64,000 nucleotides of DNA from an uncultured Actinomycetota bacterium (GTDB taxonomy: Bacteria > Actinomycetota > Actinomycetes > S36-B12 > UBA10799), in the NCBI GenBank assembly GCA_963769435.1, contig CAVYLN010000001.1, positions 959,768 through 1,023,767 of the forward strand, read 5' to 3'. The notes under the pieces were generated by a model. It saw only the letters and a program-made list of their open reading frames with translations, did not search any database and had not been told where the DNA came from. Shown here piece after piece: positions 3,197 through 62,212 of the stretch (its first letter is position 1; every line of letters starts with the position of its first letter). The translations under genes were made by a program, and so were the position numbers.

Positions 3197-3311
3197 GCTG
3201 CCCAGCATGTAGCACGAACGGCGGTTTGCCCCGGTTCCCGCACCGGTGGCGCGACCGGGGACCGCAGCGCGGGCGCACCCTGGGCGGTACCGCCCAGGGT
3301 GCGCCTACGAA

Positions 3312-7654: not shown

Positions 7655-7669
7655 TGCTAGGGGGCACAG

Positions 7670-8074: not shown

Positions 8075-8144
8075 CCGCCTGCCCCTTGGCGCTCAGATAC
8101 GCCCGTCGGACATCAACTGCCTGTTGCAGCGAAGCACCCACGTC
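8067..8144 (-). pseudogene. 3'-end remnant (~25 codons) of a second copy of the 9515-10681 membrane protein
   Basis: DVGASLQQAVDVRRAYLSAKGQADA* versus DVGASLQQAVDVRRVYLTAKGITDA* at the end of 9515-10681; same overlap with a DUF309 start. Confidence 0.85.
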
Positions 8145-8993: not shown

Positions 8994-9111
8994 CCCCGTT
9001 GGAAGGTTGGGCCATGCAGTGCCGCTGTGGGGTCCCCGACCCCGGTCCCCGGCAGGCAGGCGCCGAAGCGCTGCGGCGTTGCCGGAACTGGCGGTGCGCA
9101 GCCCCGTCGAC

Positions 9112-27702: not shown

Positions 27703-28595
27703 CTGTTTTCTCCCAATAGTCGACCGGCGCCTTGCCCGATCAGGTCATCTGCGGCACGCCGGCCCACTGCGGAGCCCTGCGAGCCGGTAGTCGTGCATTC
27801 GTACATCTGGGTCCCGTCCTGCGACAGCACGGCCGCCCGCAGGTTCAGGCTGTCCGCGGCAGCGCGGGCCAGGGCGCCCACCGGCGCGCTGCATCCGGCC
27901 CGGAGTCCGGCCAGCAGTTCCCGCTCGGCCATCACCGCCGCACGGGAGAGGGGGTCGTCGATCCCGGCCACCTCCGGCACGGCGCGGTGCTCGCGGAGCA
28001 TCTCCACGGCAAGTGCGCCTTGACCGACGGCGGGCAGCATGGTGTCTGTCGACAAGGGCACCCCGGGTGGTGTCAGCCCCAGGCGCCGCAGTCCCGCGGA
28101 TGCCACCACCACCGCGTCGAATTCGCCACTCGAGACCTTCGCGACGCGGGAGTCGACGTTGCCCCGGATACCCACCACCTGCAGGTCGGGGCGCACCCGC
28201 CGCAGGAAGGCCATGCGGCGCGGGGAGCCTGTCCCGACCCGGGATCCGGGCGGCAGGTCGTGCAGGCCGTCGGCATCGGTGACCAGGAAGTCGCGCACGT
28301 CCTCACGTTCGGGTACCGCCACTATCTCGGTGCGGTCGTCGGGCGCGGTCGGCATGTCCTTCATCGAGTGCACGGCGACGTCGGCCCGGCCGTCGATCAG
28401 CGCCTGTCGGACCGCCGTCACGAAGACCCCCTGCCCCCCGAATGAGGTCAGCGCCGCCTTGGACGTGTCGCCTTCGGTCGTCACGAGCACCTCTGTCACG
28501 ACCACCCCGGTGATCGCGGCGATCCGCTCGCGGACCCAGCTGGTCTGTGCGCGCGCCAGTGCACTGGCCCTGGTGGCCACCCTGATCTCAGACAC
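27699..28595 (-). CDS. hemC: Hydroxymethylbilane synthase
   Basis: ATRASALARAQ, AVHSMKDMP, GTGSPRR, IRGNVDSR, AGCSAPVG. Confidence 0.95.
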   Translation of the reverse strand: MSEIRVATRASALARAQTSWVRERIAAITGVVVTEVLVTTEGDTSKAALTSFGGQGVFVTAVRQALIDGRADVAVHSMKDMPTAPDDRTEIVAVPEREDVRDFLVTDADGLHDLPPGSRVGTGSPRRMAFLRRVRPDLQVVGIRGNVDSRVAKVSSGEFDAVVVASAGLRRLGLTPPGVPLSTDTMLPAVGQGALAVEMLREHRAVPEVAGIDDPLSRAAVMAERELLAGLRAGCSAPVGALARAAADSLNLRAAVLSQDGTQMYECTTTGSQGSAVGRRAADDLIGQGAGRLLGENR

Positions 28596-29927
28596 TCGTC
28601 GATCCACCCACCCCGTCGGAGGAAGGCGTCTGCTCGACCTGATCGTTCGGCGTCGGCGTCTCGGTGAGCGCCGCCACCGCGGACGGATCCAGGTCGAAGA
28701 GGGCGTGCAGGGCGGCCGCGTACCGATCGCCGCCCGGGTCGACCGCGAACTCCTTCATCCGCACGGTGGGTGTATGCAGCAGCGTTGCCACCACCCGGCG
28801 CATGGCGCGGGCGATCTCGGTGAAGTCCCTCTCGGTGAGATCCGCGTTGCGCAGTCGCAGCCTCTGCAGTTCCGCGTCCACGACCTCTTCGGCCCGTGAG
28901 CGCAGGGCCACAACGACGGGTTCCACCTTCGCGCTGGTCTGCCGCGCGACGAACTCGGTCGTGGCCCCCAGCACCAGTGCTTCCGCGGTGCTCACGGAGT
29001 CCTTGGCGACATGCGCCTCCGGCAGACCCGCGATACCCGCCAGATCCAGACGCAGCACACCCGGAATCTCAGCGATGCGTGGATCGGTGTCGTGCGGGAG
29101 TGCCAAGTCGCACACGAACAGGTCGGGGGTTGTGCCGCGCAGGACTCGTTCGAGGTGGTCGTGGGTCACGAGCAGGCCGGTCGCGCCCGTGGCGCTCACC
29201 ACGACATCCGCGGCCCTCAGTTGCGCATCGAGATCGACCAGTTGGACCGGTTCACCGCCGACGGCCTCCGCAAGTCGATGGACCGCCGCAGCCGTGCGGC
29301 CGACGATCGTGACCCGGGCACCGGCCGCGGCGGCGACGGAGGCCGCCAGCGAAGACATCGAGCCCGATCCGATGATCACGACGTGGCGTCCCTCAAGGGA
29401 ACCGAAATGCCGCTCGGCCTGCGCCAGCGCCACCTCGACCACGGACGCACCGTGCCGCCCGATCCCGGTCTCGGTCTGCACGCGCTTCCCGATCCGTAGC
29501 GCGTCCTGCGCCAACTCGTGAAGGCTGCGCCCGCCTGACCCTGCTCGACCGCGGTCTTGAAGGCCTCCCGGAACTGGCCGATGATCTGCTCGTCACCGAC
29601 CACCATGGAGTCCAGCCCGCTGGTGACTCGAAATGCGTGCCGTACCGCTGCGTCCTCGTAGTGGACGTAGAGGTGCTTCGACAACTCCTCGGCCGACAGC
29701 CCGGAACTCTTCGCCAGGATCCCGGTGACCGCCTCCACCGCGGCGTGGAACCTGGACACCTCCGTGTAGACCTCGATCCGGTTGCACGTCGACAGGAGAA
29801 GCACTTCGCCGACCGCCTCGCCGGTCCCGAGGACCGAGAGCGTGTCGTTGGGATCCACCGCGGCGACCTTCTCGAGAACCTCGATGGGCGCGGTGTGGTG
29901 GCTGACTCCCAGCACCAGAAGACTCAT
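28588..29927 (-). CDS. hemA: Glutamyl-tRNA reductase, frameshift near 29525
   Basis: GVSHHTAP, LSTCNRIEVY, GLDSMVVGDEQI, IGSGSM, DLALPHD, LLHTPT. Confidence 0.93.
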
Positions 29928-30584
29928 GATCGCCCCCGACCGGCCGCGTGCACGGCGAGGATCTGGATCTCGGTGGCGAGGTCCACCGGGCGCACCACCA
30001 CACTGCTAGGCACATCCAGATGCACCGCGGACAGGTTCAGGATGCTGCTGACACCGGCCGACACCAACCGGTCGGCGACGTCCTGGGCGGCCTCGGCCGG
30101 AGTCGCGATCACCCCGATCCCCACCTCGTTGGCCGACACACAGGAGGCGATGTCCGCCAGCGGCAGGATCTCCAGGAACTCGCCGTGAGGGACAGTCCGC
30201 CTTCGAGCCGACCAGGTCCGGATCCACGTCGAACAGTCCGACCACACGCAGCCCGCGCTCACCGAACCCCGCGTACCCAGCCAGTGCCCGGCCAAGATGA
30301 CCGACCCCGACGACGACCATCCGGTGCTCGCCGGCGAGCCCCAGGGATTGATTGACCTCGTCGCGAAGTTGGCTCACGGGGTACCCGACGCCACGCGTAC
30401 CGTAACTGCCCACGTAGCTCAGATCGCGGCGGACGACCGCGCCACTGACTCCCACGTGGGCCGCGAGATCCGCACTGTGCACTGTTCGCACGCCGGCGTT
30501 CTCGAGCTGGGACAGGCACCTGATGTACTGGGGCAGCCGGGCGATGGTGGCGTCGGGCAATGCGCGTCGCCGCAATCGCACCAT
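29924..30584 (-). CDS. rex: Redox-sensing transcriptional repressor Rex, frameshift near 30195
   Basis: LPDATIARLPQY, RRDLSYVGSYGTRGVGY, GVGHLGRAL, GVSSILN. Confidence 0.93.
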
Positions 30585-41514: not shown

Positions 41515-42270
41515 GTGCCAGAGGTTGCCTTAGATTTCCCCAGAGAATGGTTGGAGTTCACCGACCCCGACGACGCCGAGCGGATGTTCCGGTGCGACCT
41601 CACCTGGCTGACCAGCCGGTGGACGTGCATCTTCGGCCGTGGCTGCGGTGGCATCTCCGCCCACATGCCCGACGGTGGGTGCTGCACGCTGGGCGCACAC
41701 TTCAGCGACAAGGACGACCGCAAGCGGGTGTCCAAGTGGGCGGCCCGGCTGTCGCCGGAGGACTGGCAGTACCACGAGGTCGGTGCCGAGAAGGGCATCG
41801 TCATGAAGGACCCCGAGGGCAGCAAGCAGACCCGGGTGGTGGACGGGGCCTGCTTGTTCCTCAACCGCCCCGACTTCGACGGCCCCACCGGCTGCGCGCT
41901 GCACGCTCTGGCGATCCGGGAGGGCGTCTCGCCGGTCCAGACGAAGCCGGACGTCTGCTGGCAACTGCCGATCCGGCGCACCTTCGACAACGTCGAGCGC
42001 CCCGACGGCACCCACGTGCTCGTGGTGGGAATCGGAGAGTACGACCGCCGCGGCTGGGGTCCCGGTGGGCACGACCTGAACTGGTACTGCTCGTCGAACA
42101 CCGAGGCCCATGTTGCCGCCGAGCCGGTCTACGTCACAGAGCGGGACGCCCTGCTGGAACTCATGGGCGAGAAGGCCTACGCGGTACTGGCCGAGGCCTG
42201 CGAGCGCAGGGAGCGTGGTCGGCTGCGCGGCGACGAGACCGCCCGGCATCCGGCCGACCCCCGGGACTGA
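41515..42270 (+). CDS. Conserved Cys-rich actinobacterial protein of unknown function
   Basis: [38 protein letters not shown]. Confidence 0.8.
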
Positions 42271-42309
42271 CGCGGCGCTGTCCCCAACCCTGGCGCGGCG
42301 GTCCCGCGC

Positions 42310-42331
42310 TGTCGTACCCCGCCCATAGGCT
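42310..42331 (+). promoter_or_regulatory. PafBC/RecA-NDp-like promoter of radA (leaderless)
   Basis: TGTCGT-ACCCCGCCCA-TAGGCT, GTG start 7 nt downstream. Confidence 0.65.
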
Positions 42332-42338
42332 GACGAAC

Positions 42339-43767
42339 GTGGCCAAGACCGAGTACCAGTGCACCGATTGCGGCAATCGCACGGCGAAGTGGCTGGGCAA
42401 GTGCCCGGCGTGTGAGCGTTTCGGGGTGCTCGTGGAGGCCGCGCCCAGTCGGCCGAAGGCCGGGGCGAAGTCGCGCGGACCCGCCTCCACCCCGACCCGG
42501 GCCGCGCGTCCCGTCGTGGATCTGAGATCCGAGACCCACCAACGGCAGACCACCGGCGTCGGGGAGTTCGACCGCGTGCTCGGCGGCGGTCTTGTCTCAG
42601 GCCAGGTGGTTCTGGTCGCCGGGGAGCCTGGTGTCGGCAAGTCCACCCTGCTGCTCGACGTCGGGCATCGATTCGCCGAACGCAACGGCGCGGTCCTGTA
42701 CGTCTCCGGGGAGGAGTCCGCCGAGCAGATCGGGCTACGGGCCCAGCGGATCGGAGCCCTGCACCCGAACCTGCTGATCGCCGATGAGACCGAGCTGGAG
42801 CAACTCCTGGCGCACGTGACCGCGGTCCGGCCACGCCTGCTGATCGTGGACTCGGTGCAAACGATCGCGACGGCCTCCATCGACTCGCGGGCCGGTGGTG
42901 TCGCGCAGGTGCACGAGGTGACCCAGGCGATCACCCAGTGGGCCAAGTCCCATGGGCTGCCGACGCTGCTCGTGGGACAGTCGACCCGCGAGAACTCGGT
43001 GGCCGGTCCTCGCGCACTGGAACACCTGGTGGACACCGTCGTCACCTTCGAGGGCGACCGGACGTCGGCGTTGCGGATGCTGCGATCGGTCAAGAACCGA
43101 TTCGGCCCCACCGATGAGGTGGCGTGTTTCGAGCACGACGAACAGGGTCTGCGGGAGGTCGGGGATCCGTCGTTCCTGTTCCGGAAGGTGCGCGAGGAAC
43201 CCGTCGCGGGGTCCTGCCTGACGGTGACGATGGAGGGCCGCCGCCCACTGCTCGCCGAGATCCAGGCACTTGTGGCGGTCACCGGGGCTCCTGCTCCGCG
43301 CCGGGCGGCCACCGGACTGGAACTCAACCGGACCACCATGCTGGTCACCGTCACGGAGAAGGCCGGCGCACTGCAACTGAACAACCGGGACGTGTACGCC
43401 GCCACTGTCGGGGGCGCGAAGGTGATCGACCCGGGAAGTGACCTGGCGATCTGTCTGGCTGTCGCGTCGGCACGACTGGACGTCCCCCTGTGGGCCGACA
43501 CCGTCGCCATCGGTGAGGTCACACTGTCCGGTGACCTACGGGTGGTGCCCGGGCCTGGCCAAGCGCATCTCCGAGGCCGCCCGGCTCGGGTTCAAACGGG
43601 TGATCATCCCGGGGGATGCCGGCAGCAATCCGGAGGTGGTGCGCGCGGCCGAGGGCCTTGCGGTGCAGCCCATCCAGCGGCTCAGCGACCTGCTCGGCGC
43701 CCTGCGCCGTACGCCGAGGGTTTCTGCGGTCCGTCCGAAACTGCGACCGGTCAACGCGCCCTTCTGA
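42339..43767 (+). CDS. radA: DNA repair protein RadA, frameshift near 43550
   Basis: CTDCG..KWLGKCPAC zinc finger, GEPGVGKST, KNRFG. Confidence 0.95.
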
Positions 43768-43798
43768 GCCCGTCGGGCGATAATGCCTGGAAGACGGG

Positions 43799-44876
43799 GT
43801 GAGGAGGCAGGCCATGGATCGAGCGCTGCGGATGAGGACGGCGCTCGCGCAACTCGCACCGGGAACGGCCCTTCGCGAGGGACTCGAGCGTATTCTGCGC
43901 GGGCGCACCGGCGGGCTGATCGTCCTGGGCAATGACGAGACCCTCGAGCGGATCTCCGGCGGCGGGTTCCGCATGGACGTCGAATTCACCTCGACCGGGC
44001 TGCGGGAACTCGCCAAGATGGATGGGGCGGTGATCCTCGACCGCAATGCGACCCGCATCCTGCGCGCGGCCGTGCAGCTGTTGCCCGACGCAGCCATCCC
44101 CACGCAGGAGACCGGCACTCGGCATCGCACGGCCGAACGTGTCGCGGTCCAGACCGGATTCCCCGTGATCAGCGTCAGCAAGTCGATGCAGACGCTGGCT
44201 CTGTACTACGACGGTCAGCGGAAGGTCCTCGAGGACTCCACCACGATCCTGGGCAAGGCCAACCAGGCGCTGGCCACGCTCGAGCGGTACCGCTCAGCGC
44301 CTCGACGAGGTCGGATCCACGTTGTCCGCCCTTGAGGTCGAGGACCTCGTGACGGTCCGAGATGTCCTGCTGGTCGCGCAGCGCCTCGAAATGGTCCGGC
44401 GGATGTCCGCGGAGATCGACGAGTTCGTCGTGGAACTCGGCGTCGACGGCCGTCTTCTGGACCTGCAGTTGCGGGAGGTCGTCAACGGGGTCGGCACCGA
44501 CCAGGTGCTCCTGCTCAGGGACTACCTTCCGGACCCCGACGACTACGCACCCACGATCTCCCTGCTCGACGGGGCTGAGGACGAGACGCTCATGGATCTC
44601 ATCTCGCTGGGCACGACCATCGGCCTGTCCGCGGATCTCGACGGGCTGGACCAGCCCTTGAGCCCTCGCGGCTACCGCCTCCTGGGGCGCGTGCCGCGAC
44701 TGCCGGAATCCGTCGTCCAGAGACTCATCGACCACTTCGGCAGCCTGCAGAAGCTGCTCGCCGCCTCGATCGACGACCTGCAGTCGGTGGACGGCGTCGG
44801 TGAGGCCCGGGCCCGGAATGTGCGGGATGCCCTTTCGCGGCTTGCCGAATCGTCGATCCTGGATCGCTACCAGTAG
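43799..44876 (+). CDS. disA: DNA integrity scanning diadenylate cyclase, frameshift near 44295
   Basis: [18 protein letters not shown]-terminal Hh[11 protein letters not shown]. Confidence 0.95.
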
Positions 44877-44882
44877 CACGGG

Positions 44883-45500
44883 TCAGCCCAGGCTGAACGT
44901 GACCGGCTCGCTGGTGACGGCTGCGTTGGTCGCCTCCACCTGGTAGGCGCCGCTCTGCGCGGCGGTCGCGCTGGCACCGCAGCCGTTGGCCGTGACGGTC
45001 GCGTCCCAGGTGCCCTTCACCGCATAGGCCTCCCCGGCCGGGATCTCCTCCTCCTGCGACTCGCCCGGGTCTGTGCAGTCGTCCGAGGACCACACGTCGA
45101 AGCCGCCGGAGGTGACCACAAACGTGTTCGCCGCCGGACCGACGTCGCGCACGCACGCTTCCGCACCCTCGTTGGCGATCTTCATGACGAACTCGACCGG
45201 ACCGCCGGCAGGGGCGGTCTGGGCCGTCGTGACCGAAACGACGATGTCAGTGTCCTGGCACGGTGCCCCGGACACCGCGGGCGACGCCGAACCCGACGGG
45301 GTCGGACTCGTGGCCGGGGTCGACAGTGTCGGCAGCGGGGAGGGGCTCGCGCTGGCTGCCGTGGGCGCCGGTGATCCACCCGGCGAGATGAGCCACCACA
45401 CCAGCGCCAGGACGACGAGCACTCCCAGGATCACGACGATCCGGCGGCGCCAGTAGACGCTGGCGGGTTCCGGGCCGACCGGGTTGAACAACGAACTCAT
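44883..45500 (-). CDS. Membrane-anchored exported protein conserved between disA and mutY
   Basis: PVGPEPASVYWRRR, one TM, Pro/Ser linker, VWSSDDC. Confidence 0.8.
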   Translation of the reverse strand: MSSLFNPVGPEPASVYWRRRIVVILGVLVVLALVWWLISPGGSPAPTAASASPSPLPTLSTPATSPTPSGSASPAVSGAPCQDTDIVVSVTTAQTAPAGGPVEFVMKIANEGAEACVRDVGPAANTFVVTSGGFDVWSSDDCTDPGESQEEEIPAGEAYAVKGTWDATVTANGCGASATAAQSGAYQVEATNAAVTSEPVTFSLG

Positions 45501-45569
45501 GACAGCAACGTTATGCAGCCCTCGGGCCCCGCGTTTGCCCGGGTCGGGCAACCGGGGTGCAATGTCGGC

Positions 45570-46388
45570 ATGGCTCAGGTGGACCGCGTCGTCAGCGAGT
45601 GGTTCATCGCCAACCGTCGGGACCTGCCGTGGCGATCCAGTGACCCCTGGGGCGTCTACGTCAGCGAGATCATGCTGCAGCAGACACCCGTCAACCGGGT
45701 GCTACCGGCCTGGCACGCCTGGCTGTCACGCTGGCCCACTCCCACCGCCCTTGCCGACGACTCGGTGGGGGAGGCGATCCGGCAATGGGGCCGCCTCGGG
45801 TATCCACGTCGGGCGAAGCGGATGCACGAGGCTTCCGTGGTGATGCGCGACCGATTCGACGGTCGCGTCCCCGACCGCGAGGACCTGCTGCGCGACCTGC
45901 CGGGAGTGGGCGAGTACACCGCGGCGGCGGTGGCCGCCTTCGCGTACGGTCGCGACACTGTCGTCGTGGACATCAACGTCCGCCGATTCCTCACACGGAT
46001 CCTGACCGGCCGCGATCCCGGGCTGCACCCATCCGCTGCGGAACGCGCGTTGGCACAACTGGTCTTCGACGAACTGGACGTACCGGCACCGCTGTGGGCG
46101 GCGGCCTCCATGGAGTTCGGGGCGCTCGTGTGCACCGCGCGAGCGCCGGGATGTGATTCCTGCCCGCTGTCCGAGGCGTGCGATTGGGTACCCGGACCGC
46201 GCGTCTCGCGCACCCAGACCTACGAGGGGACCGACCGCCAGGCCCGCGGTGCCGTGCTGGAGGTGCTGCGCCAAGGCCCGGTGGACGACTTCGACTGGCA
46301 CGATCGGGACCAGCTCGAGCGGGCTCTGGGTGGGCTGCTCGCCGACGGCCTGATCGTGCGGACCGATCGATGGCGGCTACCGGACTAG
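45570..46388 (+). CDS. mutY: A/G-specific adenine glycosylase
   Basis: RDLPWR, VSEIMLQQT, LGYPRRA, LPGVGEYTA, CTARAPGCDSCPLSEAC [4Fe-4S] motif. Confidence 0.93.
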   Translation: MAQVDRVVSEWFIANRRDLPWRSSDPWGVYVSEIMLQQTPVNRVLPAWHAWLSRWPTPTALADDSVGEAIRQWGRLGYPRRAKRMHEASVVMRDRFDGRVPDREDLLRDLPGVGEYTAAAVAAFAYGRDTVVVDINVRRFLTRILTGRDPGLHPSAAERALAQLVFDELDVPAPLWAAASMEFGALVCTARAPGCDSCPLSEACDWVPGPRVSRTQTYEGTDRQARGAVLEVLRQGPVDDFDWHDRDQLERALGGLLADGLIVRTDRWRLPD

Positions 46389-46416
46389 GCGCGGCCCAGC
46401 TCTCTGGGGATCCGAC

Positions 46417-46599
46417 CGCCTCCAACTCTCCGCGGACACCTGAAGCGGCCTTCGCCTCACTGCGCTGAGTTGGAGGGCATTCGACCCATTTGTCCCGGTT
46501 TGTAAGGAAATTCGCCTCCAAGCTGTCCGCACACAGCCCACAGCGATGCGGACAGTTGGAGGCGAACCGGCAGCAGGGCGCAGCGACGCGGACAGTTGG
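46417..46599. repeat. Cluster of five related short motifs, four in alternating orientation plus a partial fifth (REP/BIME-like)
   Basis: CGCCTCCAACTCTCCGC 46417, GAGTTGGAGG 46467, TTCGCCTCCAAGCTGTCCGCA 46511, TGCGGACAGTTGGAGGCGAA 46547, GCGGACAGTTGG 46588. Confidence 0.75.
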
Positions 46600-46622
46600 G
46601 TCCCTCAGTTGCCCGCCAGACA

Positions 46623-46662
46623 CGCAGAGGGGCCGCACCGAACCCGGTGCGGCCCCTCTGCG
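46623..46662. terminator. GC-rich hairpin, probable terminator after clpC
   Basis: Perfect 18-bp stem CGCAGAGGGGCCGCACCG-aacc-CGGTGCGGCCCCTCTGCG just downstream of the clpC stop. Confidence 0.8.
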
Positions 46663-46673
46663 GTGAGCGTTGA

Positions 46674-49169
<2,496 letters not shown>

Positions 49170-49220
49170 CCGTAGACTCCCATCGCACGGTGATTTCTCA
49201 CTCTAGCCTCGACCTACGAC

Positions 49221-49298
49221 AACGACGAGTTCGTTTGTGTGCTTCCCGGCTTCGCCCAGGGTGAACGCGGCGACCTCGGCCGGGCACGCACCGCGAAC
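49221..49298 (-). promoter_or_regulatory. clpC control region: SigR/SigH-type promoter plus ClgR-like sites
   Basis: GGAAG-N18-GTT at 49246-49221; GTTCAC-N5-GCGAA at 49266-49251; GTTCGC-N5-GTG at 49298-49285. Confidence 0.55.
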
Positions 49299-49364
49299 AC
49301 CCGGACAGATTCCATTTCACATGTGAAGCCGATTCTGTCCAAGTTTCGCGCGGGCCGACCCCCG

Positions 49365-51446
49365 TCACTCCGGAGAGGCCCCAAGCCGCAGGTCGTGGCA
49401 GGCGAGCAGGAACTCCGAGGCGGACCACGCCTGGTAGGCCTTGCCCATCGGGCGGCCGGTCTCGCCGTGCGCCCACTCGTTGAACTCCCACTCCGTCGAA
49501 GATCCCGTCCTGGTTGAGCTTGGCCAGCTTGACGAGTTCCTGGTAGGCGATCTGGCGGTAGCCCAGGCGCTGGATGAACCTCACCCACTGGGCGCCGATG
49601 AACGGCCAGATCCCGCCGTTGTGGTAGTGGTGCGGGAGGTTCAGCAGGTTCACCGTGTAGTAGGGCGCGCCAGTCCGGGTCACCGGAGTGCACGACCGGG
49701 TAGAGGTTCTTGACCGGCCACGGGTCGTTGATCCCGACCCCCCACATGAAGCGGAAGGCGATCTTGGCCCGTGCCACGTCCAGGACGTTGAACAGCGAGG
49801 CGAGGATGTTGCCGTAGACGTCGCAGCGCCAGTTGAAGTCGAACGGCGTCACCTGCGCCAGCAGGTACCGGGTGTCGCCGACGCCGAGTTGCCGCTCGGT
49901 GAACATGGAACCGGCACCCTCGTCGCCCTTCGGCCCGGTCGTCGGCCAGAACCGGTCCAGCAGCACCGACTTGATCGTCTGCGACCAGCGCAGGTAGTCC
50001 GCCGCCCGCTCGTGTTCCCCGGCCAGTTCCAGCATCCGGCCGAACGCGACGTTGGCGCGGTACCACAGCACCTCGTCGACCAGGATGTTGTAGCTGCGGC
50101 CGAACAGGTCGGTCCAGTCCCCGGCCTCCGGGATCTCGAGCAGGGCGTCGTTGTTGCTGTCGTGCGCGCTGAGCCAGTTCATGGCGTGCTGCAGACCCCA
50201 CAGCCGCTCGCGCAGGAAGCGCGATGTCCCCGGAGTTGCGCACGTACTCGTACATGGCGATGACGGTCCACAGACCCGGAGTCGATGGAACTGATCCCGC
50301 CGACCCCGGAGTAGTCGGGGATCTCCTCGTCGATGGTCACGTTGGCCGGGATCTGACCGTTGGGACTCATGTGGTTGAGCAGCGTCTCCAGGGTCCTGCG
50401 ACGCGCACGCCCGGATCTCCGGATCGTCGAGGTGCATCGAACCGACGACCGCGACGGACCCGTCGCGCGCCCAGACGCTGCGGTAGTTCACATCGGTGCC
50501 GTGGACCAGGTTGTCCTCCAGCGAACACGCGGAGAAGCCCAGCGGGGTGATGTTGCGCTTGAGCGCCTCGACCGCCTTGGCGTACGCCGGTCTCCAGCAG
50601 TTCGATGTCCTCGCGCGACAGCCCGTCGACGTGCTCCTCGTCGAAGATCCGCTGGATCGCCGGGTCGAGTCTGCTTGGGCCATTCGTGGTCGTCGTACTC
50701 GGGGATCTCGCGTGATCACACCGTAGTGCTGCAGGCCCTCGAGCACGCCGTCGGCGAAGTGCTCCTGCGCCTGGATAGGTGGGCACGGACAGCGTGCGGG
50801 CGGAGAGTTCCGGCTGCGCGTTCTCGACGACGATCCCGCGGACGCCGGGGATGAGGAACATCGCCGAGTCGTTGCCGGTGTCACCGGCCACGACCACCTC
50901 GTGGGCCTTGATCCCCAGTTCGTCCAGGAGCCAGCGCAACGAGTTGCCCTTGTTGGCCATCTTGGGCAGCACGTCGAGGTCGCGGGCACTGGAGTAGACG
51001 AGGTTGACCGTGACCCCCTCGGCGTTCAACAGGTCCTCGAGCTGCTGGATCGCCTCGTCCTCGGCACCTTCGAGGTACCAACTGGACTTGTAGCGGTGCT
51101 GGAACTGAGGCGGTTGCCGAACGGCGTTCGTGGCGGCCTGCACGATCGACTCGATGGTGCCCTTGTCCCACCCCTCCTCCATGACCTCGGAGAACTCCTT
51201 GAGCATCGTCTTGGCCTTGAAGTCGTAGATCATGGTGCCGACCCCGCAGATCGCGAAATCCGGCTCCGGCAGGTCCGTGTTGGCGATCACCTTGACGGTG
51301 TCGTTGAGCAGCCGGCCGGTCGTGTAGCACAGCAGCGGGCGGGCCTCGTCGGGGATCGAGCGCCAGGCATGGTTGAAACGCAAGGTGGCGTCGGGTTTGC
51401 CCAGAAGGGTTCCGTCAAGGTCGGAGCAGAACATCCGTACTGACAT
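49365..51446 (-). CDS. HAD-IIB (sucrose/mannosylfructose-phosphate phosphatase-like) domain fused to a GH100-like (alpha/alpha)6 glycoside hydrolase; multiple frameshifts
   Basis: FCSDLDGTLLG, DLDVLP..ANKG, AGDTGND; then NYRSVWARDG, IPEAGDWTDLF, YHNGGIWPFIG, EFNEWAHG..GKAYQAWSA. Confidence 0.8.
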
Positions 51447-51531
51447 GCGAATCCTTTCGAGTCGGCCCCGGACGCCCACCCTAGCCCGCGCCGGGGACGC
51501 AGGGAGGTTGAGCGGATCCGGCCGATCGCGA

Positions 51532-52840
51532 TCAGACGAACGAGTCGGTCACGTCGAAACTCGGAGTGCCCCGGGACTCCACGGCGCTGATCAACTGCTG
51601 GGCGATACCGGTCCACGTGAACAGTGCCCGCACGCGATGTGCGCCGTCGCGGTGCAGTCGCTCCCGCAGCCTCTGGTACTTCAACGCCTGCAGCAGAGCG
51701 ATGCCGAACTCCTGCTTGTCGGTGGTGTCGGCGTACAGCGCCTGTGGATCCGAAGTACACGGCCCGCCACAGCCCACCGTGGGTGGTCATGACCGTCGGC
51801 GCCCCACAGGCCATGGCCTCCACCGCCGTCATCCCGAACGGTTCGTACCGGCTGGACAGCGCGAACACGTCGGCCGCGCGGTAGAAGTCGGCCATCTCGT
51901 CGTCCTCGAGGGATCCGGTCAACTGCACGCGGTCCTCGAGACCGTACTCGCGGACCTTCGCAACGATCTCGTCCAGGATGTCGTTGTCACCGAAGTCGGA
52001 GGTCTCGGCGCCACACGCTATCCGCAGCCGGGCTTCCGGGATCCGTTCGGCGACCACGCTGAACGCGTCCACGAGCAGGTCGAAGCCCTTGTTGCGCGCC
52101 AGTCGCCCGATGGAGGCGATGACCAGACCCTCGTACCCCAGCGACTCCCGGATGCTGTCGCGCGTCGCACCACTGACAGGGAAGAACCGGTTGTCGTCGT
52201 AGCCCGGCGGGATCATCTTGATGCGGTGAGCCGCCACGTCGTAATGCTCGCGCAGCAGGTCCACCTGCGGCGGCGAGGTGGCGATCACCATGTCGCACTC
52301 GCGGAACAGCGTCTCCTCGTGGTGGATGCGCCGGCTGAAGTTGTACTGCTTCTCCATCTCCTCGGCGGACTTGTCGGAGTCCTGCTCCATCTGGTGCTTC
52401 TTCCAGTACCCCAGCGAGTGCGGGGTGTGGATGTGCGGCACGTCGAGCACGTTGGCCAGGTGCTGGCCCGCCAGGCCGGCGTCCCAGTAGTGGCTGTTGA
52501 TGAACTCGTACTCCAGGCCCTTGTTCTTGATGAAGCGCAGGGCGTTCTCACCCCACTCGGGGAGTTTCTTGTAGAGGTACTCCTTGGGGATGAACTCGGG
52601 CCCGCCGCAGTTCATCCGGATGATCCGGACATCCTCGTCGACGACCTCGATCTGCCGCTGCTTCTCGAAACGCCGGGTCCAGATGTCCACGCGGTAGCCC
52701 AGTTGCGCGAGTTTCTTGGACAGTTCGAGGACGAAGACCACCTGACCGCCGGTGTCGGGGGCACCGAGCGGGGGTTCCGCGGCCACGTACCCGTGTGTGG
52801 AGATCATGGCTATCCGTTGCTTGCGCCGCCGGGGGGCCAC
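51532..52840 (-). CDS. mfpsA: GT4 sugar-phosphate synthase, mannosylfructose-phosphate synthase (MfpsA)/SPS-like, frameshift near 51745
   Basis: ISTHGYVAAEPPLGAPDTGGQVVFVLEL, FIPKEYL, INSHYWDAG, HTPHSLG, SSRYEPFGMTAVEAMACG; gene symbol assigned from recalled similarity. Confidence 0.75.
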
Positions 52841-52970
52841 TGCAAATCACCTCGTCAGATCGCGAACCACTGCCCTGATACTACCCGTGGGCCCGCGAGC
52901 GACACACCCCCACGCGCAACCGGGCTCCCCGGCGACGCCGACCACGCCGTTCGGCGGGGTACCCTCCAGG

Positions 52971-53841
52971 ATGCGCACTTCTCCGGGAGGGGACGACCTA
53001 CAGATCCGGCCGCTGGAACGCTCGGGGTTGGATCTCGTGATGCAGTGGGCCGCCGACGAGGGCTGGAACCCCGGCTCGTGCGACGCGGGACTGTTCTGGA
53101 ACACCGACCCCGAGGGGTTCCTGGGCGTGGAGTCGGACGGCAGGCTCGTGGGTGCGGGGGCGATCATCGACTACGGGCGGGCGTTCGGCTTCATGGGGCT
53201 GTTCATCGTGACCCCGGAGCTACGCGGCCGAGGCGTCGGCCGCCGACTCTGGTACCACCGTCGGGACACCCTGCTCGCACGGTTGCAGCCCGGCGCCGCG
53301 ATCGCACTGGACGGGGTCAAGGACATGGAGGGCTTCTACGCCGGCGGCGGTTTCCGTGCCACACACGACGAGGTCCGGATGTCGACCCGGGCGCCGCGCG
53401 CCGTCGGGGGTGGGGCCGAGCCGGTCACGGAAGTCGACGAATCGATTGCCGCGCTGGACGTCGCATGTTTCGGTGCGGCCAGGCCGGCGTTCCTCGGACC
53501 CTGGCTGACAGCGCCGGGCCACATCAGCCGCGCGGTGCGGCACGACGGGCGGATCGTGGGCTTCGGAACACTTCGGCCCTGCCAGTCGGGTTTCAAAGTG
53601 GGTCCGTTGTTCGCGGAGTCCGCCGACGTGGCCGACACCATCTTCAGATCCCTGTGCGCGGACCTGCCCGAGAGCGCCGAGGTGTTCGTCGACGTTCCCG
53701 AGGTCAATCGGGAAGCGATGAAGTGGATCGCGACCCGGGGTGGCAACGGAGGTCTTCCGGTGCGCCCGGATGTACTACGGATCCCCGCCCGACACCGACT
53801 GGGCCAAGGTTTTCGGCATCACCACCTTGGAACTGGGCTGA
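52971..53841 (+). CDS. GNAT N-acetyltransferase with YitH-like C-terminal domain, frameshift near 53745
   Basis: WAADEGWNPG, FMGLFIV..ELRGRGVG, KVGPLFA, reconstructed end ARMYYG...FGITTLELG*. Confidence 0.85.
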
Positions 53842-53997
53842 TCTCCCGGCGAAGGTTGTGAACATCACGTCACGGGGCGCACAGATGTTTGCACGCTTTG
53901 CCGAGAAGGCCCAGTTCGCCCGAACTGACCCCGCCGATCGCGCCCAAGCCTCCCGACAACCCGACGTGGATTGCTCAGCCGCACTACGCTTCCCGGG

Positions 53998-56644
<2,647 letters not shown>

Positions 56645-56654
56645 GAGGCACACC

Positions 56655-57017
56655 TCAGCCTGCGAGCCCGGTTCCCAGATACCACCCCGCGATCGCGGCC
56701 AGCAGACCCACGGCCATGCTGGCACCCACGTTGAGCAGGGCCACGGTTCCGGAACCGTCCTCGACCAACCGGACCGTCTCGAAGCCGAACGTGCTGAACG
56801 TGGTGAAGCCGCCGCAGAAGCCGGCACCGAGCAGCGCCACCCACTGCTGCGAGAGATCGGCGCCGAGGATCACCCCGAGCAGCAGGGACCCCGCCACGTT
56901 GATGGTGAAGGTGCCCCAGGGGAAGACGCTGTCATGGCGCGACTGCACGGATCGGTCGAGCAGCCACCGGCTGGGCGCTCCGACCGCGGCGCCGAGCATG
57001 ACCAGCGCGAGGATCAA
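56655..57017 (-). CDS. crcB: Fluoride channel FluC/CrcB
   Basis: [25 protein letters not shown]. Confidence 0.92.
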
Positions 57018-57352
57018 GGCTTCCCGCCGACGTACTTGATGACCTGCACCGGATCCAGGATCACCAGACCCTGCCCGATCAGTTCGTCGAGTTCGGGCAG
57101 GAACGCCTCGACCCGGTCCTGGGTGTCGACGATGACGATTGCCACCGGCAGATCCTCGCCCAGGCTGAGCAGGCGACTGGTGTGCACCCTGGAACTGGCA
57201 CCGAAGCCCTCGATCCCGCGCATCACACTGGCACCGGCCAGTCCAGCCGCGTGCGCGCGGTGGACGACTTCGGTGTAGACCGGGCGATGGTGCCACTGGT
57301 CGCTCTCCCCCACGAAGATCGTCAGCCGCATCGCCGACCCCTCGAGTTTCAT
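57014..57352 (-). CDS. DUF190 (PII-like) protein
   Basis: [41 protein letters not shown]. Confidence 0.9.
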
Positions 57353-57828
57353 GATCTCTTCTCCCTCACCGCATCTGCGGACAGCGCACGTGCCAGAACG
57401 ATCCCGAGCCACACCGCCACGACCCCGACGGCGACACTGGCGAACATGTAGACGATCCCGATCGGGGCGTGACCGTCCATCAGCAGTTGCCGCGCCTGGG
57501 ACGTGTACGCCGAGTAGGTCGTGAAGCCGCCCATCACCCCGACCGCGAGGAAGGGCCGCAGGTACCGGCGGGGCGACCACACGTCGAGCAGGTAGACCAT
57601 CAGTGCCCCGAGCAGGAAGCAGCCCAGCACGTTCTCCACGAAGGTCGACCATGGGAACAGGGACTCCGGCACCACCACGTCGAGCAGGTGCCTGCCCGCC
57701 CCGCCGATCGCGCCTCCGGCCGCGATCGCGAGCAGTAGATCCCACGTGCGCTCTCGCGCGACCGGGGTGTCGACATCGAACGGGGACAGGTCCGGGTCGA
57801 CCGGGAGATCCGGCTCTGCGTCTGCCAT
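57349..57828 (-). CDS. crcB: Fluoride channel FluC/CrcB (second subunit)
   Basis: [31 protein letters not shown]. Confidence 0.9.
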
Positions 57829-57957
57829 CAAGGCCTCCCTTCGTGCCCGAGGCTAGTGGCCCGAGGCGAGCCGTTGTAGGCGGTGGTGATCGGATCGTGA
57901 CCTGCCTCACCCGAAGGTGGTGTTGATCCGCCACGGGTCTCGGGAGACCATGGAGGG

Positions 57958-58692
57958 GTGATCGATGCCCTGGCCGCCGCAGTCTTCCTGCTTCCGAGTG
58001 AGGAATCGCCTGCCCCGACCCCGACCCCGACCGCCACGACACAACCGGTTTCGAAGAAGCAGGCTGTCAAGAAGGCACCGCCGATGAAGCAGGTCTACGC
58101 GGGCAAGGCCAAGATCCGCAAGGGCATGCAGGGCAAGTCCGTCCGGCGTATCCAGGAGCAGCTCAACGGCATCGGCAAACCGGCCCCCACGAACGGGGTG
58201 TTCGACAAAGCGACGGTCAAGGCCTACAAGTCGTATCAGGACAAGTTCGGCTACTGGCCCACCGGCAACGTCTCGCAGAAGCAGTCGCTGAAACTCAAGA
58301 AGCTCTACGGGAAAGGCAAACTGCCCCCGATCTGCAAGCGCGGCAAGGTCCTGTGCATCGACAAGACGCAGCTGGTCCTGCGGCTCATGGTCAAGGGTGA
58401 CCAGAAGCTCGTGACTGACGTGCGTTTCGGCGCCGAGCAGACCCCGACCCGTAACGGCAAGCACCGCGTGCACTCGAAGATCCGGTACCTCATCAGCGAT
58501 CTGGCCGGGACCCCGATGCCCTACTCGGTCTTCTTCAGTGGCGGTCAGGCGGTGCACTACTCGCCGGGATTCCACCGTGATGGCTACAACGGGGCCTCAC
58601 TGGGTTGCGTGAACGTCCGGGTCCTCAAGGATGCGCGCGAGATCTACCAGCGGACCTCGGTGGGCACCACCGTTTACGTCTACCGCTCCTAG
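57958..58692 (+). CDS. L,D-transpeptidase with peptidoglycan-binding domain
   Basis: PG-binding segment (VRRIQEQL...NGVFDKAT), [23 protein letters not shown]. Confidence 0.88.
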
Positions 58693-58741
58693 CCAGCGCG
58701 TCCGGCCGGTGGTGAGCCGGCCGCCGCGCCCACCATGAACA

Positions 58742-60205
58742 ATGGGTCTGGTGCGACGGTGGAACCTGCTGGTGGACCTTGGCCTGGTCCTCGTCTGTGC
58801 GCTGGCCGCCGCGCTGTTGGAGCAGGATGCGAACTGGGATCAGTTGCAGTACCACTACTGGTATCCCTGGCAGTTGTTCCACGGCGGGTTCTCCGATCCG
58901 GACCTCTACGGTGGGCGGTTCCAGAACCCCTTGCCGCAGGTCCCGTTCTACCTGCTGGCCTCGACCCTCCCGCCCCAGATCGCACAGGCCCTGTTGGGCG
59001 GGCTCGCCGGGACCGCCGCGGTCGTGGCCCGCCGGATCGCGCTACGAGTGCTTCCGTACTCCGGCGGAACGCAGATCGTGGCGAGCCTGGCCGCCGCCGT
59101 CCTCGCGGTGGTTGGCGCCGGCTTCCGCAGCGAACTGGGCACCAGCTACTCCGACGTGCTGCTGACTGTGCTGCTGCTCGGAGCCCTACTGCTCGTCATG
59201 CGGTCAAGGCCCTGGCCCGCGCTGTGGGCCGGGGTGCTGGCGGGGGCCTCGGTGGGACTGAAATACACCAGTGCCCCCTTCGCGATCGCCGTGCTGGTCG
59301 CACTGTGGGTGCTCCCCGGAGACCGGCTCAAACGCACCGGCCTGTGGGTCGGGGGTGCTGTGCTCGGGTGGTTCGTGACCGGTGCCGCGTGGGCGTGGAA
59401 CCTGTGGCGCACCTACGACAGCCCGACTTTCCCGTTCTGGAACACCGTCTTCGGCAGTCCGTGGTACCCGACGGCCAACCTGACCGACCAGCGCTACGGC
59501 GTGGAAGGGATCGGGCAGTGGCTCTCGTGGCCGTGGACGATGGCGACCGGCTCCGCCAGAGTGCTCGACCTCCCGGTGCGGGACCCGCGGTGGCTGCTCC
59601 TGGTGCTCGCGGTGGTCCTGATCGCAGTGGGCTGGCGCCGCTTCCCGAACCCCGGCAGGGCCGTCCTCGCGTTCACGTTGGTCGGACTGGTGTTGTGGCT
59701 GGCCGTGTTCGGCGTGATCCGGTACGCGATCCCAGCCGAGATGACCGCAGCGGTACTGGTGGTCTGTGCGCTCGCTCTGTGGCTCAGCCCGCGGGCCGCG
59801 ATCGCGCTGTCGTTGGTTCTGGCGGTGGCGGCCGGTCTGCTCACGCGATCCGCACAGAGCCGCAGGGTGGAGTTCGCGCACAGTTGGTACGAGGTCGAAC
59901 CAGGAGCTTTCGCGGCGATCAGGCCCGGGGATGCCGTCCTCGTCGACGGCCAGTATCCGAGTACGTTCCTGCTCCCCGGCGCACTGCCGCCCGGCGTGCC
60001 GGTGTACGTCGTCCAGAAGGACTTCACGGGCACGCCCATGCTCGGGTGGCTCGAGCAGGAACTGGCGGCGGCAGGACGGGTGTGGGTCGTGACCGGGCGC
60101 CCGCCGTCGCAGGTCGATCCGGCGCTCGGGACCATCGACTACGAGGACTGCACGAGGATCAGGAGCAATGTGGTGGATCGATGGCTCTGTCCGGTGAGAC
60201 TGTGA
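58742..60205 (+). CDS. Multi-pass membrane glycosyltransferase-like protein (GT-C fold)
   Basis: QDANWDQLQYHWY, GLKYT, PTFPFWNTVFGSP, IRYAIP; more than 10 TM. Confidence 0.65.
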   Translation: MGLVRRWNLLVDLGLVLVCALAAALLEQDANWDQLQYHYWYPWQLFHGGFSDPDLYGGRFQNPLPQVPFYLLASTLPPQIAQALLGGLAGTAAVVARRIALRVLPYSGGTQIVASLAAAVLAVVGAGFRSELGTSYSDVLLTVLLLGALLLVMRSRPWPALWAGVLAGASVGLKYTSAPFAIAVLVALWVLPGDRLKRTGLWVGGAVLGWFVTGAAWAWNLWRTYDSPTFPFWNTVFGSPWYPTANLTDQRYGVEGIGQWLSWPWTMATGSARVLDLPVRDPRWLLLVLAVVLIAVGWRRFPNPGRAVLAFTLVGLVLWLAVFGVIRYAIPAEMTAAVLVVCALALWLSPRAAIALSLVLAVAAGLLTRSAQSRRVEFAHSWYEVEPGAFAAIRPGDAVLVDGQYPSTFLLPGALPPGVPVYVVQKDFTGTPMLGWLEQELAAAGRVWVVTGRPPSQVDPALGTIDYEDCTRIRSNVVDRWLCPVRL

Positions 60206-61155
60206 TCACGGCGTGGCACGACGGACACGTCGTCGACGCCGCCATCGCCGCCGGGGCGCACGCCCTCGCCCATCACCACGTGGTCGGGATGCCCACCGAG
60301 ACGGTCTACGGCCTGGCCGCCAGCGCCACTGACTCCGCGGCGGTGAGCCGGGTGTTCGCGATCAAGGGCCGGCCCGCGGACCATCCGGTGATCGTGCACG
60401 TCCGGGGAGCCGACGCCCTCGGGGAATGGGCCCGCGAAGTTCCTGGCTACGCCCGCGATCTCGCCGTTGCGCTGTGGCCCGGGCCGCTCACCCTGGTGGT
60501 GCCGGCTGCCGATCGGGTGCCTCGCTTCGTGACCGGCGGTCAGGACACGGTCGGACTGAGGTGTCCGGCACATCCGGTCGCACTGGCACTCATCGATCGA
60601 GCGGGGCCCGTGGCCGCACCGAGTGCGAACCGCTTCGGTCAGGTCTCCCCCACCAGCGCCGCTGACGTGGTCGCGGACATCGGCCACCTGCTGAGCCCGG
60701 AGGACCTGGTGCTCGACGGTGGCCCCTGCCCGGTCGGTGTGGAGTCGACGATCCTCGACTGCACCGGAGACCGCCCACGAGTGCTGCGCTGGGGGGCGGT
60801 GGAACCCGCTGAGATCCGGGAGGTTGCCGGGGTGGCGGTGAGCGCGGAGACCTCCACCGTGCGCGCTCCCGGCGGGTTGGCCTCGCACTACGCACCTCGG
60901 GCCCGGGTCCGGCTCGGCGCCGACCCTCGACCGGGCGAGGCTTTTCTGGCACTCGCCTGCGAGCCGACCCCTGCCGAGGCCGTGCGCCTGGCCTCCCCGG
61001 CCACCACCCGCGACTACGCGGCGGTGCTCTACCGGGCATTGCGCGACGCCGATGCGCGAGGACTCGGATCGGTTTGCGCAAAGCCCCCCGATGACGGCAG
61101 TGCGTTGAGCACTGCGATCCACGACCGCCTCTCCCGGGCCGCGGCCTCCCGGTAG
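60202..61155 (+). CDS. sua5: L-threonylcarbamoyladenylate synthase (Sua5 type)
   Basis: PTETVYGLAA, KGRPADHP, WPGPLT, APSANRFG, GVESTI, APG.L.SHYAP. Confidence 0.92.
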   Translation: MITAWHDGHVVDAAIAAGAHALAHHHVVGMPTETVYGLAASATDSAAVSRVFAIKGRPADHPVIVHVRGADALGEWAREVPGYARDLAVALWPGPLTLVVPAADRVPRFVTGGQDTVGLRCPAHPVALALIDRAGPVAAPSANRFGQVSPTSAADVVADIGHLLSPEDLVLDGGPCPVGVESTILDCTGDRPRVLRWGAVEPAEIREVAGVAVSAETSTVRAPGGLASHYAPRARVRLGADPRPGEAFLALACEPTPAEAVRLASPATTRDYAAVLYRALRDADARGLGSVCAKPPDDGSALSTAIHDRLSRAAASR

Positions 61156-61237
61156 CGCCTGGCTGGTCGCGGAGTCCCCGTTAGCGCCAGGTTCCCGAAG
61201 TCGACGACGGCACATGCTTTCGCGGCAGACTGTGGGC

Positions 61238-62212
61238 ATGCGCGCTGTGACCATGACCGCCGTCAACGAGATCGCCGCGGGTGAGCGACCGGATCCCGAA
61301 CCCGGCCCGGACGAGGTGCTGATCCGGGTGACGGCATCGGCGGTGTGCCGGACGGACCTGCAGATCCTGCGTGGGGACCTCCCCAGTCACCGGCTCCCGC
61401 TGATCCCCGGCCATCAGGTGGTCGGGGAGGTCCTGACCGCGGGTCCACTGCAGGGCCAGCGGGTCGGCCTGGTCTGGCTGGCCCACGCGTGCGGCGTGTG
61501 CCGCTTCTGCCGGGAGGGCCGCGAGAACCTCTGTCTCAATGCCGAGTTCACCGGCTGGGACCGTGACGGCGGCTACGCGGAACTGGTGACGGCGCACAAG
61601 GACTTCGTGCACCCGCTCCCGGACGGTGACGCGGTGGCCCTGGCACCGTTGCTGTGTGGCGGCGTGATCGGGTTCCGCAGCCTGCGCGTGGCCGGCATCG
61701 GCCCGCATTCGGCCGGGGCCAGGCTGGGACTGTACGGCTTCGGCGCCTCGGCCACCATCGCCATCCAGGTGGCCAGATACTGGGGCTGCGAGGTGTACGT
61801 CGTGACCCGGTCGCAGGACGAGGTTGGGCGCGCACGCGAACTCGGGGCGGCGTGGGCGGGCACGTACGAACAGGACCTCCCCGCCGCGCTGGACGCCGCA
61901 GTCACCTTCGCACCGAGCGGCGACGTGGTCGTCGCCGCGCTGAAGGCCCTCGACCGCGGCGGCACGGTGGCCATCAACGCCATCCATCTCGACCGGATAC
62001 CCCAGATCGACTACGACGACCTGTGGTGGGAACGCAGCCTGCGATCGGTGGCGAACGTGACCCGCGAGGATGTTCGCGACTTCCTCGCGGTCGTGGGGCC
62101 GGCGGAGGTCCGAGCCCAATACGAGGTGCTGCCCCTCGACCAAGCCCCACGAGCCCTGGAACGGGTTGAGTCGGGCGACGTGCGGGGCGCGTTCGTACTC
62201 GCCGAGCACTAG
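61238..62212 (+). CDS. Zinc-binding alcohol dehydrogenase family protein
   Basis: CRTD, PGHQVVG, CGVCRFC...ENLC, LLCGG, LYGFGASA. Confidence 0.92.
   Translation: MRAVTMTAVNEIAAGERPDPEPGPDEVLIRVTASAVCRTDLQILRGDLPSHRLPLIPGHQVVGEVLTAGPLQGQRVGLVWLAHACGVCRFCREGRENLCLNAEFTGWDRDGGYAELVTAHKDFVHPLPDGDAVALAPLLCGGVIGFRSLRVAGIGPHSAGARLGLYGFGASATIAIQVARYWGCEVYVVTRSQDEVGRARELGAAWAGTYEQDLPAALDAAVTFAPSGDVVVAALKALDRGGTVAINAIHLDRIPQIDYDDLWWERSLRSVANVTREDVRDFLAVVGPAEVRAQYEVLPLDQAPRALERVESGDVRGAFVLAEH

Follow-up and report, generated by a model that had tools for sequence, protein, structure and literature searches.

Why does an uncultured actinobacterium carry a gene resembling the mannosylfructose-phosphate synthase (MfpsA) of Agrobacterium, and what sugar might its product help to make? 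The question is raised by a minus-strand gene at positions 51532 to 52840 of a 64,000-nucleotide stretch of contig CAVYLN010000001.1 (hereafter the window, meaning the whole of this stretch), which an earlier note, made from the sequence alone, had described as a horizontally acquired gene of a rare osmolyte pathway. MfpsA and the phosphatase MfppA of Agrobacterium tumefaciens were reportedly described by Torres and Salerno in PNAS in 2007, and to our knowledge the only studied member of the family makes the salt-stress sugar mannosylfructose. On balance we consider it probable that the window gene encodes a glycosyltransferase of the MfpsA family, that it heads a two-gene sugar module making a mannosylfructose-like solute, that this module was laterally acquired, and that the break in its reading frame is an error of the sequence record. 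If true, a compatible-solute pathway that is experimentally known only from Agrobacterium reaches into an uncultured lineage of Actinobacteria.

The synthase gene and the bounds of its family

The gene ends with a stop codon at 51532-51534 and starts at the ATG at 52807, which matches the start of its homologues (sequence MISTHGY), or alternatively at the GTG at 52840. The outer bounds given in the earlier note therefore stand, and the two peptide strings that it quoted are real, since both MISTHGYVAAEPPLGAPDTGGQVV... and ...EFIPKEYLYKKLPEWGENALRFIKNKGLEYEFINSHYWDAG occur in the minus-strand translation from 52840. A frame break between these bounds had been overlooked: the span of 1309 nt equals 3x436+1 and hence is no multiple of three. 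The frame read from 52840 (frame A) is protein-like through ...THGGLWRAVYFG(S) and then yields Arg/Pro-rich nonsense until a stop at 51287, whereas the conserved C-terminus, QALYADTTDKQEFGIALLQALKY...TWTGIAQQLISAVE, is found in a second frame at 51535-51744. Eight full-length homologues are continuous across the break point (YFG[A/Q]QALYADTTD). A single skipped base at about 51745 restores the frame in a frameshift-aware alignment of the DNA with the intact orthologous protein of a related actinobacterial locus (L001), in which 410 of 436 residues are identical, and DNA alignment shows that this base is absent from all five actinobacterial relatives compared. The open reading frame (ORF) of the window copy is thus interrupted by one extra base, and is composed as follows:

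51746..52807, minus strand: 5' part of the synthase gene, frame A, about 353 codons from the ATG at 52807, with both GT-B halves up to ...THGGLWRAVYFG (translation, Pfam)
about 51745, minus strand: extra base within TTCGGATCCACAGG (frameshift-aware alignment; five of five relatives one base shorter)
51532..51744, minus strand: 3' part of the synthase gene, frame B, 70 codons and the stop, QALYADTTD...TWTGIAQQLISAVESRGTPSFDVTDSFV

The 3' part is recovered in the second frame by a tblastn search with the L001 protein at 88.6% identity over its 70 residues. Sequence profile analysis identified Glyco_transf_4 (8.7e-26) and Glycos_transf_1 (1.3e-27) domains, i.e. the two Rossmann-like halves of a retaining enzyme of glycosyltransferase family 4 (GT4).

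The database matches are far above chance, the best having an E-value of 2.3e-228 and 95% identity; of 8000 candidates that were scored, 5453 proteins reach E<=0.001. The nearest proteins in a word-indexed search are an unnamed 425-residue protein (95% identical) and one from a metagenome-assembled genome (MAG) titled Candidatus Nanopelagicales (89%), followed by proteins from Verrucomicrobiota and Lentisphaeria MAGs at 65-76% identity; the closest non-actinobacterial relatives, at 74-76%, are from Verrucomicrobiota. In a library of representatives at 50% identity the family collapses to a single entry (570 bits, 60% identity), with the next entry at 392 bits (47%). Among the 120 homologues listed, 19 carry the JGI name 'mannosylfructose-phosphate synthase', while the NCBI names are just 'glycosyltransferase'. 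With the corresponding gene of a Rhizobiaceae MAG (L033) as query, a second search recovered proteins from Mesorhizobium, Rhizobium, Pararhizobium and Ciceribacter that are named mannosylfructose-phosphate synthase by NCBI/UniRef, as well as a protein of Agrobacterium sp. ES01 whose name says no more than GT4 enzyme, which clusters with those so named; seven of the eight Rhizobiales orthologues used bear the MfpsA name. The 5' part of the window gene aligns with the ES01 orthologue with 217 of 353 residues identical (61%) and no gaps, and identity to the Rhizobiales orthologues in general is 59-62% over the full length, likewise without gaps.

The curated models give a concordant picture. On the 365-residue 5' part the NCBIfam model for sucrose-phosphate synthase (SPS; TIGR02472, sucr_P_syn_N) scores 194.8 bits against a cut-off of 576, and the model for the actinobacterial D-inositol-3-phosphate glycosyltransferase MshA (TIGR03449) scores 194.6 bits against 462.5. 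The intact protein P0003, 95% identical to the window protein, has no match to the SPS model at E<=1e-75, and in a scan of 100 near relatives at the same threshold one (P0346, 692 bits) exceeds the MshA cut-off and none the SPS cut-off, the highest SPS-model scorer being P0352 with 346 bits. The solved structures are about equally far away, with MshA (3c4q) and SPS (6kih) at 152-166 bits and a further SPS (2r60) at 127-145 bits. In phylogenetic analysis (a quick tree with 108 rows and a careful one with 52, which agree) the family forms one clade of 45 rows in the careful tree with support of 100/99, with the MshA row P0346 and the SPS-like row P0352 falling outside it. Rows P0247, P0249, P0253, P0257 and P0260, which lie inside the family in the quick tree, and additionally P0246 and P0266, were kept out of the careful tree as probable long-branch artefacts, and loci L037, L063, L070, L073, L074 and L080 were left out of both, their glycosyltransferase genes being partial or split. 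Thus, the window protein belongs to a family with sharp limits, among whose members are the Rhizobiales proteins named MfpsA, and by curated models it is neither SPS nor MshA. The closeness to MfpsA proposed in the earlier note is hence supported, including by the tree, in which the Rhizobiales proxies carry database-given names and the window protein sits in the other subclade. Its picture of a rare Agrobacterium-type pathway is not: the family is widespread and centered on Verrucomicrobiota, Opitutaceae sequences surround even the Rhizobiales clade, and the name had already been assigned by automatic annotation.

A phosphatase-glycosidase partner and the proposed chemistry of the module

The second gene of the operon lies directly downstream of the synthase:

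49365..51479, minus strand: S6PP (sucrose-phosphatase family, HAD-IIB) domain fused to a GH100/GDE_C-like (alpha/alpha)6 glycosidase domain; likely start ATG 51446 or GTG 51479

The S6PP domain is detected on the window piece with an E-value of 2.1e-59. The orthologous fusion in L001 (11321-13426; 701 residues) shows S6PP at 3.3e-66 and Glyco_hydro_100 at 3.1e-15. In L001 and L003 the S6PP domain makes up the N-terminal third of a protein of 693-701 residues, of which the C-terminal 410 residues match the Glyco_hydro_100, GDE_C and MGH1-like models. The nearest solved relative of the N-terminus is the Synechocystis sucrose-phosphate phosphatase (SPP) 1s2o (2.4e-29), and those of the C-terminal domain are cyanobacterial alkaline invertases (5goo, 4.1e-9). 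Both Pfam domains are present in all 120 listed homologues of the fusion, for which 2135 proteins reach E<=1e-20 among 8000 scored; their names are generic, i.e. HAD-IIB hydrolase, sucrose-6F-phosphate phosphohydrolase and, once, beta-fructofuranosidase.

Among 80 related loci the synthase is followed immediately by an SPP with a GH100-like domain in 48, and after a gap of 2-2.6 kb in four more. In 11 others, including both Rhizobiales loci, there is an SPP with no adjoining GH100-like stretch, a count that takes in L052 even though its split SPP hid such a stretch; six loci reach a contig edge and 11 have no SPP downstream. The SPP-GH100 fusion is thus the usual partner of the synthase family outside Rhizobiales, and accompanies it in most genomes under generic database names only. 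The gene order is like that of MfpsA and MfppA, in that a phosphatase of the S6PP family comes after the synthase, and the window S6PP domain is 46% identical to the phosphatase following the Rhizobiaceae synthase gene. To this extent the earlier reading is supported, but the partner is no plain MfppA, being fused to the GH100-like glycosidase of about 410 residues that is missing in the two Rhizobiales loci. The window further differs from the Agrobacterium system in that its clade belongs to a different subclade, its synthase copy is frameshifted, and a GH63-like hydrolase gene (see below) diverges from the synthase. Other neighbors of the module in individual loci include a KdpD osmosensor (L016), an MscS-type channel (L038) and sodium:solute symporters (L017, L036).

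By homology, a retaining GT4 enzyme of the GT-B fold would transfer a hexose, with GDP-mannose as the most likely nucleotide-sugar donor, onto the 2-OH of fructose-6-phosphate. The S6PP-type domain of the next gene could then dephosphorylate the product to give a sucrose-like non-reducing disaccharide (mannosylfructose), and the GH100-like domain on the phosphatase, together with the divergent GH63/MGH1-like hydrolase, might degrade the disaccharide once it is no longer needed. Strains of A. tumefaciens accumulate mannosucrose (beta-fructofuranosyl-alpha-mannopyranoside) with NaCl (PMC2918589); an osmolyte role for the window module might be carried over from this NaCl-dependent accumulation by homology, this being its sole experimental basis. 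Literature searches on mannosylfructose recovered nothing concerning Actinobacteria or the phosphatase-glycosidase fusion, those on mfpsA, mfppA and mannosylfructose-phosphate recovered as the only relevant item a gene-map legend from Pontiella, and those joining GH100, sucrose-phosphate phosphatase and Verrucomicrobia found nothing relevant.

The acceptor site was mapped by homology to the SPS of Thermosynechococcus (TeSPS; Tll1590, 6kih), with which the window protein shares the GT-B fold, the catalytic His and Glu, the GGQ motif and most phosphate-binding residues. TeSPS residues were transferred through the 6kih alignment, in which chain numbering equals the numbering of the paper plus 3, as read from the AGGQ and HSLG motifs. 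In the TeSPS report (PMC7264703), His158 and Glu331 are essential sugar contacts, Arg105 and Arg178 bind the phosphate of sucrose-6-phosphate, Arg249 and Arg253 bind the UDP phosphates, Glu339 binds the ribose, and Ala48 and Gln51 contact fructose. Within this set, His158, Glu331, Glu339, Arg178, Arg249 and Gln51 correspond to identical residues in the window protein (H130, E322, E330, R160, R235 and Q22), as does the neighboring Pro332 (P323), while Arg105 is replaced by Lys75 and Ala48 by T19. Seven of the nine mapped residues are therefore identical or conservatively replaced, and in the acceptor site Gln22 and Arg160 are conserved with Lys75 in place of Arg105, a pattern that would fit hexosyl transfer to fructose-6-phosphate. 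The same paper has the sugar 2-OH contacting only a UDP phosphate in TeSPS, on account of which the mapped residues do not bear on the choice of donor; the use of GDP-mannose by the window enzyme would thus follow from homology to the proteins named MfpsA.

Several observations weigh against a mannosylfructose product. Judged by the TeSPS contacts described in that text, the window sequence holds nothing that would distinguish a mannose from a glucose donor, and the phosphate-binding Arg253 is an asparagine (Asn239, with K240 adjacent). No domain of the GDP-mannose pathway was found beside the module at E<=1e-12 in 30 loci with 121 flanking ORFs. In four of these 30 (L029, L038, L040, L051) the module is followed by a kinase of the PfkB type that sucrose clusters typically contain. 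The invertase-type GH100 domain and the sucrose-6F-phosphate phosphohydrolase naming of the partner suit sucrose equally well, and the Rhizobiales proxies carry their MfpsA names from databases and occupy the other main subclade of the family. It is hence conceivable, though in our estimate rather unlikely, that the enzyme functions as an SPS with UDP- or ADP-glucose as donor, that the module makes and recycles sucrose, and that the MfpsA name is properly restricted to the Rhizobiales subclade. The conserved catalytic and fructose-contacting residues of SPS, the separate subclade of the window protein and the SPP-type partner, with its affinities to the Synechocystis phosphatase and the alkaline invertases, can all be accommodated in this manner. 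Against it speak the SPS-model score at about a third of its cut-off in the window protein, the lack of any relative above that cut-off among the 100 scanned, the position of the SPS-like row outside the family, and the gapless full-length identity to the Rhizobiales proteins. Moreover, the solved SPS of Thermosynechococcus and Halothermothrix orenii (2r60) lie at only 127-166 bits from the window protein, and the best SPS scores are no better than those of MshA (152-166 versus 153-166 bits). A mannosylfructose-like product is, by homology, our preferred assignment.

A broader proposal, which we put forward only tentatively, takes the synthase and the phosphatase-glycosidase protein as a very widespread uncharacterized two-gene module that would build and dismantle a sucrose-like solute. 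On this view the pair studied in Agrobacterium represents a reduced form lacking the glycosidase, and the actinobacterial lineage added its own GH63/MGH1-like hydrolase; the product in the Verrucomicrobiota/actinobacterial subclade may differ from mannosylfructose, or the fused domain may not simply hydrolyze the product. The module as a whole is a more interesting object than the synthase by itself.

Frame breaks and the probable lateral history of the module

The extra base in the synthase is one of many. Relative to the L001 proteins, the synthase has one single-base insertion, the fusion gene nine and the divergent GH63-like gene four (14 in 6.1 kb), with no in-frame stops and no codon-sized insertions or deletions; when two flanking genes are added, 16 of 16 frameshifts are +1 insertions. 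Once corrected for frame, identity to L001 is 94% for the synthase (410/436), 90.7% for the fusion (636/701) and 92% for the GH63-like protein (810/880). In a codon-usage frame map of the window, the coding frame switches on the same strand, without a stop, at about 13 further places, 11 of them in the +1 direction. The genes with domains confirmed by Pfam to be split are those of a Na/H exchanger, a solute-binding protein and a FUSC-type protein, together with hemD, hemA, rex, radA and disA. Approximate positions of these breaks, and the best delimited of the split genes, are:

50774, 50713, 50673, 50588, 50401, 50277, 50219, 49666 and 49494, minus strand: insertions in the fusion gene
54823, 55199, 55344 and 56200, plus strand: insertions in the GH63-like gene
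2277, 2779, 14647, 27561, 29518, 30195, 43548, 44293 and 63458: other frame breaks of the window, most of them +1
2278-2778 and 2780-3211: Na/H exchanger, split between different frames
29520-29939 (GlutR_N) and 28591-29517: split hemA
42267-43547 and 43549-43704: split radA
43916-44293 (DAC) and 44295-44861 (linker): split disA

These breaks most likely reflect an error of the sequence record, with the organism itself probably having an intact gene, since the damage consists of insertions only, housekeeping genes are also hit and there is no sign of relaxed selection. The alternative, that the frameshifts are real and that the whole sugar cluster (synthase, phosphatase-glycosidase and GH63-like gene) was recently inactivated and is decaying, appears distinctly improbable to us. 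It draws on the crowding of 14 breaks into three adjacent, functionally linked genes with none in the neighboring clpC1, and on an acetyltransferase gene, missing in five relatives, which is inserted between the divergent genes. Indeed, the insertions are uneven, with nine in the 2.1-kb fusion gene as opposed to none in 2.5 kb of clpC1 (P ~0.002 and ~0.04, respectively, under uniform error), which also counts against a simple error of the record. Bacterial pseudogenes are known to have a deletion bias. The pattern seen here is the opposite, in that every one of the 14 breaks is a +1 insertion, unaccompanied by deletions, nonsense codons or codon indels. The dN/dS values of the synthase (0.052), fusion (0.092) and GH63-like gene (0.059) are as low as those of intact neighbors (0.02-0.19), and breaks of this kind also affect housekeeping genes such as hemA, disA and radA. 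At least seven of the 14 inserted bases are unlike both neighbors and hence are no homopolymer slips, which likewise counts against decay. Programmed or slippage-type frameshifting was rejected, as the breaks lie outside homopolymer or slippery runs.

Split copies are also encountered in related MAG records, namely the GH63-like gene of L002 (3730-5974) and the synthases of L063, L070 and L080, each of which aligns in two pieces; frame breaks in this gene set are thus not peculiar to the window. With the many single-base insertions that the window carries, apparent pseudogenes in it need read-level confirmation.

The tree illuminates the origin of the module. The window and five actinobacterial MAGs (L001-L005) form a clade with support of 100/100, which sits inside a clade of 12 rows with Verrucomicrobiia, Chthoniobacterales and Lentisphaerota (100/98), itself inside a clade of 18 rows with Opitutales (100/99). 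In the other half of the family, the Rhizobiales rows are grouped in a separate clade (100/93) whose sister is an Opitutaceae row (99/99). The phylum labels are those of the MAG record titles, which mis-binning could make wrong, as illustrated by L037, a 1.6-kb contig binned as Bifidobacterium, whose label was judged untrustworthy. That the host is an actinobacterium, as the earlier note had it, agrees with all five syntenic relatives being titled Actinomycetota or Micrococcales/Nanopelagicales.

The horizontal origin proposed there is consistent with this nesting among Verrucomicrobiota and Lentisphaerota, and the ancestor of a small lineage of actinobacteria probably acquired the module laterally, in an old event, from a Verrucomicrobiota/Lentisphaerota-like source, a direction suggested by the topology of the tree. 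Positions 42281-62000 of the window are collinear with L001-L005 in blastn comparisons, and the acquisition therefore predates the split of these genomes; the synonymous divergence (dS) between the window and L001 is 0.6-0.8. The GC content at third codon positions of the synthase gene (0.89-0.92) matches the upper end of the range of host genes (0.81-0.91), which bears out the codon adaptation claimed earlier. The module would thus have entered the ancestor of the lineage, taken up a fixed place by clpC1 and become fully adapted in codon usage. No tRNA gene marking an insertion site was found within the window. The actinobacterial and rhizobial genes both look like exports from a Verrucomicrobiota-centered family, for which there would accordingly be at least two lateral exports, one to Rhizobiales and one to Actinobacteria.

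The notion that the window protein is instead a vertically inherited paralogue of MshA, which acts in mycothiol synthesis, or some other ordinary actinobacterial GT4 enzyme, has in its favor the common GT4 fold (3c48/3c4q), a sequence score as close as that of SPS and a place for Corynebacterium glutamicum MshA among the best PDB sequence matches (152.7 bits), but deserves almost no credence: it is already contradicted by the model scores, with 194.6 bits lying far under the MshA cut-off, and by the tree, in which the true MshA row is attached outside the family by a branch 2.0 long, while MshA has GGM and HTLA where the window protein has GGQ and HSLG (a Met thus replacing Gln22), the nearest relatives outside actinobacteria are verrucomicrobial, the neighboring genes differ and an S6PP domain follows the gene.

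Other genes of the window

The genes flanking the operon in the window are the following:

53998..56644, plus strand: GH63/MGH1-like glycoside hydrolase, 880 residues, divergent from the synthase, with the four single-base insertions
53001..53861, plus strand: GNAT acetyltransferase ORF between the divergent synthase and GH63-like genes (Acetyltransf_18 2e-23, Acetyltransf_1 2e-10)
46674..49169, minus strand: clpC1-type AAA+ chaperone gene downstream of the operon (Clp_N, AAA_2, ClpB_D2-small), intact, the synteny anchor

The L001 orthologue of the GH63-like protein (7048-9690) matches MGH1-like_GH (2e-25) and Glyco_hydro_63 (7.5e-8). In the comparison of 80 loci this gene was seen only in the actinobacterial loci L001-L005, and it may represent a lineage-specific breakdown enzyme for the solute. 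The region of the acetyltransferase (about 52855-53979) has no counterpart in L001-L005, which have about 250-300 bases there, and synteny breaks at 52854 and 53978 in all five. The window clpC1 is 98.4% identical to that of L001, with no frameshift. Beyond it, 42267-46388 holds radA, disA, an unassigned ORF and a mutY-like HhH-GPD glycosylase gene, followed by clpC1 and then the sugar cluster; the order radA-disA-mutY-like-clpC1 is typical of Actinobacteria, as in Mycobacterium. A scan of 49100-54100 for promoters and terminators returned nothing beyond shuffled expectation.

Farther away, a minus-strand heme-synthesis cluster at 25174-29939 comprises hemA, hemC, a hemD/cobA fusion and hemB, with a rex-like regulator upstream (29942-30554). 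The ORF at 18067-18762, in a stretch of several short frame switches (17651-18762), encodes an HNH endonuclease domain, and that at 23472-24767 matches the virginiamycin B lyase family (9.8e-41).

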